Origin: a virus | Lineage: Duplodnaviria; Heunggongvirae; Uroviricota; Caudoviricetes | DNA: 7,747 nt | IMG/VR virus record: IMGVR_UViG_2537561714_000016 | Location: 1 to 7,747 of that record | Reading direction: 5' to 3' (one strand) | Shown here: piece by piece, positions 4,443 to 4,567 of the stretch | How the letters are laid out: each line of letters begins with the position of its first letter | How positions within the stretch are numbered: position 1 is the stretch's first letter | The notes under the pieces: model-generated | What the model saw: the letters and a program-made list of their open reading frames with translations, nothing else | What the model was told of the DNA's origin: nothing | The model's database searches: none | Program-made: the position numbers and the translations under genes

Positions 4443-4567
4443 ATGTTAACTGCTGCCTGGTTAACATTTGCTGAAAAAGCCAGTTAACATTTTTTCCGCA
4501 CAACAAACTGAATAATAAAGATAAAAACCGCAAAAATGCCCGGACAGCCAGTTAACATGTTAACTGC
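4443..4567. repeat. Array of five GTTAACAT/ATGTTAAC motifs including an 18-bp perfect palindrome; candidate terminase-binding (cosB-like) or operator sites
   Basis: Read directly: ATGTTAAC 4443-4450; GTTAACAT 4460-4467 (10-bp inverted repeat with the first copy, 9-bp spacer); GTTAACAT 4483-4490; GTTAACAT 4551-4558 and ATGTTAAC 4557-4564 overlapping inside the perfect palindrome CAGTTAACATGTTAACTG (4549-4566). GCCAGTTAACAT is directly repeated at 4479-4490 and 4548-4559. A-tracts lie between copies. Confidence 0.6.

Follow-up and report, generated by a model that had tools for sequence, protein, structure and literature searches.

Short repeats beside cosN as probable small-terminase recognition sites in an Escherichia coli lambdoid prophage

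Why should five copies of one 8-bp motif be crowded into the short intergenic region that precedes a phage small-terminase gene? We addressed this question in a window of 7,747 bp, the whole stretch of DNA analysed, which belongs to an E. coli lambdoid prophage of the BP-4795/2851/YYZ-2008/1717 group (Stx-converting siphophages) and is matched by 94 phage records. The prophage is 100% identical to a locus in O157:H7 TR01. All packaging genes lie on the minus strand, in the order HNH, cos, repeats, terS and terL. The HNH endonuclease gene (4658 to 5023; Pfam HNH), encoding an accessory nuclease of the terminase, stands directly upstream of cos and is kept there in all phage-type relatives. It is followed by a 289-bp intergenic region (4369 to 4657) and then by terS (3805 to 4368, minus strand), which has a GTG start and the Shine-Dalgarno sequence GGAGGAGG and encodes a protein of 187 amino acids (Pfam Terminase_2, E value = 4.5e-8), our proposed reader of the motif. 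Next come terL (2147 to 3808, minus strand; 553 amino acids, Pfam TerL_ATPase and TerL_nuclease), encoding the partner of TerS, and a gene for a protease-capsid fusion of 645 amino acids (146 to 2083, minus strand; Peptidase_S78 and Phage_capsid). The minus strand also carries genes for a lysozyme (7359 to 7676), an Rz spanin (6925 to 7374) and a KilA-N/Ant-like protein (6225 to 6722), and a DUF3950 (YnfO/YlcI) gene on the plus strand (5065 to 5250) is divergent from HNH and runs against the late operon. In Lys8385Vzw, a near-identical phage, the portal gene follows the capsid gene rather than preceding it, unlike the HK97 order (window, 146 to 2083; record L120, 2515 to 6762).

The intergenic region was 96 to 99% identical among the matching phages, compared with about 94% for a 1.6-kb query that included the flanking genes. 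The spacer between cos and terS (4369 to 4610) was found in 1,244 of 5,426 complete E. coli genomes (23%), at 2,945 places and in up to seven places per genome, with no annotation under these matches among the RefSeq records listed.

The first-pass annotation had described five copies of the motif in both orientations, a perfect palindrome and a 12-bp direct repeat, all of which were exact in sequence and position. The motif, GTTAACAT, occurs at 4443 (-), 4460 (+), 4483 (+), 4551 (+) and 4557 (-), that is, five times between 4443 and 4564, and no further exact copy was found in the rest of the window. The copies at 4551 and 4557 overlap to form a perfect 18-bp palindrome, CAGTTAACATGTTAACTG (4549 to 4566). 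The direct repeat, GCCAGTTAACAT (4479 to 4490 and 4547 to 4558), lengthens to 13 bp as AGCCAGTTAACAT (4478 to 4490 and 4546 to 4558), and the first two motifs form an inverted repeat with 12-bp arms, GCAAATGTTAAC (4439 to 4450) and GTTAACATTTGC (4460 to 4471), 9 bp apart. When set in one orientation, all five sites share the extended consensus AATGTTAACTGGC. Such clustering is not random: no 8-mer reached five copies within 125 bp in any of 1,000 dinucleotide shuffles of the window or 5,000 shuffles of the intergenic region. Furthermore, an unbiased k-mer count of the window spacer returned ATGTTAAC as the top 8-mer, with five copies, a number reached in none of 2,000 shuffles. In the 50-kb genome of Lys8385Vzw, where about 1.3 copies of GTTAACAT are expected, there are six, five of them in the first 155 bp.

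The position of these first 155 bp is set by the ends of the virion DNA. Zhang et al. (2021; PMC7946995) studied virion DNA of the Stx1 phage Lys8385Vzw, for which PhageTerm gave 3' cohesive ends of 10 nt, CGCCCCCCCT. The record of this phage ends in GGACACCGCCCCCCCT and starts with CTCACGCAGAG (or CTCACGCAGAGAAAAAATTCCCGTTTCAGGGCAGTTAACATGTTAACTGG), and the minus strand of the window, which reads GGACACCGCCCCCCGT followed by CTCACGCAGAG, equals that end sequence with one base different. We therefore took the cut position from the mapped ends of Lys8385Vzw, which is 97 to 99% identical to the window, and placed the 10-nt 3' cohesive-end sequence of cosN, CGCCCCCCGT, at 4598 to 4607 on the minus strand, the left genome end reading downward from 4597. 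The surrounding cos core (4576 to 4651, minus strand) consists of a G-run, GATCG, GGACACCGCCCCCC(G/C)T and, across the nick, CTCAC followed by AGAAAAAATTCCC; it is kept in about 15 Enterobacterales genera and in satellite-like islands. Counted from the cut, the GTTAAC cores of the five motifs begin at +34, +42, +110, +133 and +148, the array spans +34 to +155, and terS starts at +230. The array thus lies on the first-packaged side of cosN, between the cut (4597/4598) and terS, and the earlier placement of the repeats between a presumed cos nicking region and terS agrees with the virion ends of Lys8385Vzw.

Two further observations concern this junction. One IMG/VR contig (L031) starts at window position 4598, the cut deduced here, and another (L064) starts at 4568, beside the palindrome; these starts could mark true linear ends, or breaks that arose in assembly at a homopolymer or palindrome. 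In addition, the PPompW prophages (L003, 3275 to 4733) have the IS110-family element ISEc20 inserted about 35 bp upstream of cosN, within the C/G-run, at the equivalent of about window positions 4641 to 4643. The element replaces HNH, DUF3950 and the lysis region, with tRNA genes and Q directly adjoining, and leaves cosN, the repeats, terS and terL in place. Since the adjacent HNH gene is gone, these prophages are probably defective in packaging.

The array divides into a proximal site, a linker and a distal cluster. The proximal site is the palindrome (4549 to 4566), with its two GTTAAC half-sites at +34 and +42, and among 70 E. coli haplotypes its variants were all singletons or doubletons. 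The AT-rich linker (4491 to 4548) contains T/A tracts starting at +62, +71, +79, +91 and +103 and is partly homologous to the linker in the spacers of two satellite-like islands, L113 and L123. Beyond it lie distal site 3 (4478 to 4490, plus strand; AGCCAGTTAACAT, GTTAAC at +110), whose only common polymorphism, at 4482, is outside the 8-mer, and distal sites 2 and 1 (4439 to 4471), the inverted repeat with cores at +133 and +148, whose 8-mer cores had zero polymorphism. Across the 70 haplotypes the motif cores were free of common polymorphism, compared with 26 of the 251 other positions of the intergenic region. Diversity was uniformly low across 4369 to 4490, however, in the motifs and their surroundings alike, so that within E. 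coli the motifs themselves are conserved beyond their surroundings with only modest significance.

A-tracts between the copies had been read as a sign of bending. The linker does have an AA/TT periodicity of about 10 to 10.5 bp, but this was equalled by 32 of 2,000 shuffles, which did not preserve runs, so that a bend is plausible and the phasing of the A/T tracts supports it weakly. A lambda-style I1 site was considered and dropped: scanning 4300 to 4700 for the IHF consensus WATCAANNNNTTR returned no match with one mismatch or fewer.

To learn which part of the array is held in place, we compared 22 loci fetched from an alignment of TerS homologues, together with Salmonella phage FSL SP-016. 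The source genera were Kluyvera, Atlantibacter, Erwinia, Serratia, Enterobacter, Kosakonia, Rouxiella, Phytobacter, Pantoea, Citrobacter, Buttiauxella, Proteus, Morganella and others. The spacer from cos to terS is 39, 64 to 75 or 229 bp long, depending on the lineage, and the remainder of its sequence has turned over; nevertheless, every lineage (about 15 genera) has a GT(T/A)AAC box that begins between +33 and +37, counted from the cut. Most loci have a compact layout, which reads GGACACCGCCCCCCCT, the cut and then CTCACGCACAGAAAAAATTCCCCTCTGGAGGGTGTAAACATGTTAACAGCG, with a near-palindrome, GT(A/T)AACATGTTAAC, at +34 to +47 and the ATG of terS inside it. In the window lineage the distance of the box from the cut is unchanged and the palindrome is perfect, the old Shine-Dalgarno sequence has decayed, and terS starts about 190 bp further on, the extra DNA holding three more copies of the motif. 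Codon usage follows the box: where it overlaps the terS start, Leu2 is encoded by TTA in all 18 loci, and T(A/T)AAC is retained between the Shine-Dalgarno sequence and the ATG; where it lies away from the start codon (the window, Proteus, Morganella and Pantoea BAV), Leu2 is CTG or CTA. This pattern points to a constraint on the DNA that is tied to cosN and not to translation.

A trace of the older arrangement may persist in the window as a 24-codon open reading frame (MLTGCPGIFAVFIFIIQFVVRKKC and a stop codon; 4484 to 4558, minus strand), which runs from an ATG in the palindrome to a stop (TAA) within motif 3. The frame appears to be left over from the ancestral start of terS, read as MLT (ATG TTA AC) in the compact relatives, and its Shine-Dalgarno sequence has degenerated from GGAGGG into CAGGGC or CAGGCC. 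A separate feature of the compact relatives (L002 and L007 to L024) is an extra copy of GTAAACAT (GAGTAAACATCGATCG) about 38 bp upstream of the cos cut. In these phages cosN thus has directly repeated copies of the motif on both sides of the nick, and the extra copy could be a cosQ-like element or a second TerS contact. The window and the satellites have an A-run at the same place.

Since the proximal box suffices in the compact relatives, the distal copies of the window may be dispensable. An alternative built on this point is that only the proximal palindrome is functional and that the distal copies, with little or no role, are by-products of the extra spacer of about 190 bp, acquired by recombination (e.g., with satellites) or local duplication. 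The relatives with a 39-bp spacer, about 15 genera that carry the proximal box only, are what this alternative would predict, and it is also in keeping with centre-to-centre site spacings of 8, 68, 23 and 15 bp, which follow no simple helical phasing, and with conservation that extends throughout 4369 to 4490 rather than marking the motifs alone. Yet the long-spacer satellites L113 and L123 repeat the architecture with a motif of their own, at several distal positions and with an inverted pair. The distal copies of the window, moreover, have a common extended consensus of 12 to 13 bp, ATGTTAACTGGC, and flanks unlike the 5' end of terS, besides the absence of polymorphism in their cores among the 70 haplotypes. 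We consider a purely proximal function improbable on balance. Duplication of the terS 5' end was also evaluated as an origin of the distal copies and was rejected, as the similarity stops right after the 8- to 12-bp motif.

A box fixed relative to the cut calls for a protein that reads it, and we looked into the fold of TerS. The only Pfam match of the protein was Terminase_2, with no Nu1-family winged helix. Among PDB sequences, the TerS profile matched the DNA-binding domain of SF6 TerS (4zc3, E value = 3.5e-4), Pam5 and other HTH-type TerS chains, and it had no match to any HK97 TerS chain at an E value of 1 or less. In the AlphaFold2 model, residues 1 to 55, encoded at about 4204 to 4368 on the minus strand, form an N-terminal HTH domain with pLDDT above 90 and helices at 4 to 14, 19 to 25, 33 to 41 and 44 to 55; Foldseek placed 4zc3 and 2cmp as top matches (TM = 0.84, rmsd = 1.6 Å over 56 columns). 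Residue 38 sits in the helix formed by residues 33 to 41, which, by comparison of the model with the DNA-binding domain of SF6 G1P, is predicted to be the second HTH helix, i.e., the recognition helix.

The identity of residue 38 turned out to separate two sets of repeats. Five further TerS types (P0063, P0053, P0055, P0066 and P0090), homologues at an overall identity of about 47%, come from small integrative islands of E. coli chromosomes (L109 to L115, L119 and L121 to L126) and not in full prophages. Besides an integrase, AlpA and a capsid-like gene, the islands have a replication protein of the AAA_25 or D5_N type, and some of them encode an HNH or a TerL of their own. They look like TerS-encoding PICI-type satellites of the packaging family to which the phage of the window belongs. 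A cos-like core is found about 75 to 285 bp upstream of their terS, and most of their cosN sequences are nearly identical to that of the window: four of the five island TerS types adjoin a window-type core, GGACACCGC(C/G)CCCC(G/C)T followed across the cut by CTCA. The repeats that follow the island cosN, in contrast, are AAAAGTTACAC and not GTTAACAT. L109 and L125 have GTTACAC-type repeats at +33 and +45; L113 and L123 have them at +33, +123, +179 and +192, together with one inverted copy. The L121 island, whose TerS (P0090) is of the KGYQL type, has a divergent cosN, yet it carries AAAAGTTACACCCC about 30 bp past cosN. The unbiased k-mer count applied to the L123 spacer gave AAGTTACA as the top 8-mer, with five copies, again reached in none of 2,000 shuffles.

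Every TerS with KGSQL was thus paired with GTTAAC, and every TerS with KG(W/Y)QL with GTTACAC. The first-pass annotation had proposed aligning related prophages to see whether the motif varies with the TerS DNA-binding domain, and this comparison gave a positive outcome: on the same cosN, a change of S38 to W or Y goes with GTTACAC repeats, and therefore the motif tracks the TerS DNA-binding domain rather than HNH or DUF3950. TerS is a mosaic of its two domains. Compared with the TerS of the window, the compact relatives have 62 to 73% identity in the N-terminal domain and 37 to 50% in the C-terminal domain, and their motif is the same; the satellites have 56 to 69% identity in the C-terminal domain and 52 to 54% in the N-terminal domain, and their motif is different. 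The W/Y-type domains are probably one clade, so that as few as one or two evolutionary events may underlie the co-variation. A search with the C-terminal 84 amino acids of TerS for further classes of DNA-binding domain returned fragments only.

We weighed the same loci against the idea that HNH or TerL, rather than TerS, binds the sites. The HNH gene is directly upstream, the sites are close to the nick, and cos cleavage in HK97-like systems requires HNH, which makes the earlier suggestion of an HNH binder a natural one. It does not fit the distribution of the motifs, however: the HNH of L123 and L124 is 73.5% identical to that of the window and is accompanied by GTTACAC, the HNH proteins of the compact relatives are only 63 to 70% identical and are accompanied by GTTAAC, and the L119 island has its own motif and no HNH. 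Similarly, the TerL of L121 is 73% identical to that of the window, yet its repeats are of the GTTACAC type. Binding by HNH or TerL thus seems very unlikely.

The other candidate binder that had been put forward, the RHH-like DUF3950 protein, fared no better. Palindromic and repeated sites are typical of operators, and the array could in principle serve as an operator for this protein or for another phage or host factor, or contain promoter hexamers. But no DUF3950 gene was found within 2 kb in any compact-type or satellite locus that keeps the box, the gene being absent from every non-E. coli relative with it, and it is the cos cut, not the start of any gene, from which the box keeps a fixed distance. 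The DUF3950 gene is confined to the E. coli lineage of the module, a moron-like behaviour. As for a promoter, motifs 2 and 3 supply a 9/12 sigma-70-like match on the plus strand (TTAACA, 18 bp, TAACAT; 4461 to 4490), but it is weak and antisense to the late operon, and one such match was found where 0.5 were expected. The scan for promoters and terminators detected no terminator in the spacer. LexA, CRP and similar boxes, compared by eye, do not seem to fit. We regard a regulatory role of this kind as having very little probability.

Because the repeats are partly inverted, they could also act in the late transcript as RNA hairpins, for example, in terS translation or mRNA stability. The predicted structures are a hairpin of 12 bp for motifs 2 and 1 (-14 kcal/mol, z = -4.2) and a stem of 9 bp for the palindrome (-10.9 kcal/mol), and the satellites have an inverted pair too. 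Nevertheless, local hairpins are a trivial consequence of inverted repeats; the fold of the whole spacer is ordinary (z = -0.97), Rfam had no match anywhere in the window, and pairing cannot explain motif 3, the lone +33 satellite site or the direct repeats in L109 and L025. We consider this explanation very unlikely.

Taken with the termini, the fixed box, the co-variation and the SF6/G1P-type HTH, which all agree with the reading first given to this array as TerS sites resembling lambda cosB, these comparisons make it likely that the repeats are recognition sites for TerS and form the cosB-like region of an HNH-dependent cos lambdoid (Stx-type) prophage. The small terminase would bind the GTTAAC-type sites just inside the left genome end and so start packaging. 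Its predicted N-terminal HTH domains would be exposed, on a ring oligomer that we assume by analogy with SF6 TerS. The proximal palindrome (+32 to +49), at its fixed distance from the nick, would anchor TerS, and TerL, aided by HNH, would make the staggered cut at cosN about 35 to 50 bp from the anchored protein. The three distal sites (+110 to +155) would be reached over the AT-rich, probably bent linker and would engage more HTH domains of the same oligomer, with the DNA wrapped around TerS, giving a cooperative and specific complex like that at lambda R3-I1-R2-R1. This is the kind of element expected in a cos phage; for the phage family of the window it is previously undescribed, and we found no published description of the recognition region in the searchable literature.

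How closely does the array resemble known packaging sites? Like lambda cosB (R3-I1-R2-R1, bound by gpNu1), it is located between cosN and the small-terminase gene at the end that is packaged first, and it has several short repeats in both orientations, arranged as a proximal site and a distal cluster across a possibly bent segment. Lambda cosB also sets packaging specificity and is exploited by satellites, known or inferred, a role that is putative for the window. The two systems differ in that the TerS of the window belongs to Terminase_2, with an SF6/G1P-like HTH, and lambda has the Nu1 winged helix; the window has no IHF consensus and its repeat sequence is unrelated; and the window system includes an HNH protein and, judging from Lys8385Vzw, 3' overhangs of 10 nt, in contrast to lambda, with its 12-nt 5' ends and lack of HNH. 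The likeness to cosB therefore extends to position, multiplicity and layout and stops short of two defining features, a Nu1-type TerS and an IHF site.

The HK97 cos (Chechik et al. 2024, PMC11331095) shares its chassis with the window: an HNH protein, HK97-like TerL and capsid modules and, judging from Lys8385Vzw, 10-nt 3' overhangs. Its single TerS site (+15 to +29) is a few turns downstream of the cut, as the proximal site of the window would be. HK97 TerS, however, has no defined HTH; the DNA passes through its central tunnel, and a single 15-bp site is recognised. The TerS of the window has a confidently predicted N-terminal HTH, and its putative sites number five rather than one, beginning with one at +34 to +47.

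With the pac regions of SPP1 and SF6, read by G1P, the window shares the TerS fold family (4zc3, 2cmp and 3zqq) and a recognition region with repeats and A/T tracts, which can overlap the ribosome-binding site and the terS start, as it does in the compact relatives. Packaging there is headful (pac), in contrast to the defined cohesive ends of Lys8385Vzw, the homologue of the window. In addition, HTH binding in SPP1 and SF6 is weakly sequence-specific and the box repeats are apparently unimportant; SF6 TerS, the best-studied relative and the closest with a solved structure, makes numerous weak HTH contacts in which sequence matters little, and its specificity has been attributed to conformational selection of bent DNA (PMC4737164), a precedent that speaks against our reading. 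The co-variation of our motif with a recognition-helix residue argues for base-specific reading, unlike SPP1/SF6, and if the motif is read in this way, the TerS family of the window would differ from SF6 TerS.

The islands, in turn, have parallels among satellites. Their own TerS with a distinct repeat beside a helper-type cosN recalls the logic of SaPI, with its TerS-S and SaPI pac, and a phage-like cosN with a different cosB is also known from EcCICFT073, an E. coli PICI that uses Rpp. Unlike the latter, the islands have no Rpp-type adaptor and keep a helper-like TerS C-terminal domain while changing the DNA-binding domain and the motif. Fillol-Salom et al. (2018) described TerS-encoding E. 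coli PICIs whose helper phages were then unknown.

These parallels suggest, as a tentative possibility that we rate below an even chance, a swappable code in which the phages use S38 with GTTAAC, and the satellites, with a helper-compatible C-terminal domain, use W/Y38 with GTTACAC and divert the TerL and HNH of the helper. If this is true, one substitution in the recognition helix and one or two bases of the site would switch packaging specificity, and the TerS-encoding E. coli PICIs of unknown helper would be satellites of the phage family of the window.

How small terminases select DNA is still debated, with wrapping, threading and conformational selection as competing models. The family of the window offers a compact test case in which an HTH-type TerS is combined with exact, short repeats whose distance from a mapped cut is constant, in which natural variants have the site overlapping the terS start codon, and in which naturally orthogonal pairs of TerS and site on one cosN make TerS specificity directly testable. 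Moreover, because the spacer belongs to phages that carry Shiga toxin genes, knowledge of their packaging signal bears on the prediction of prophage and satellite mobilisation and on the design of cos-based transduction vectors.
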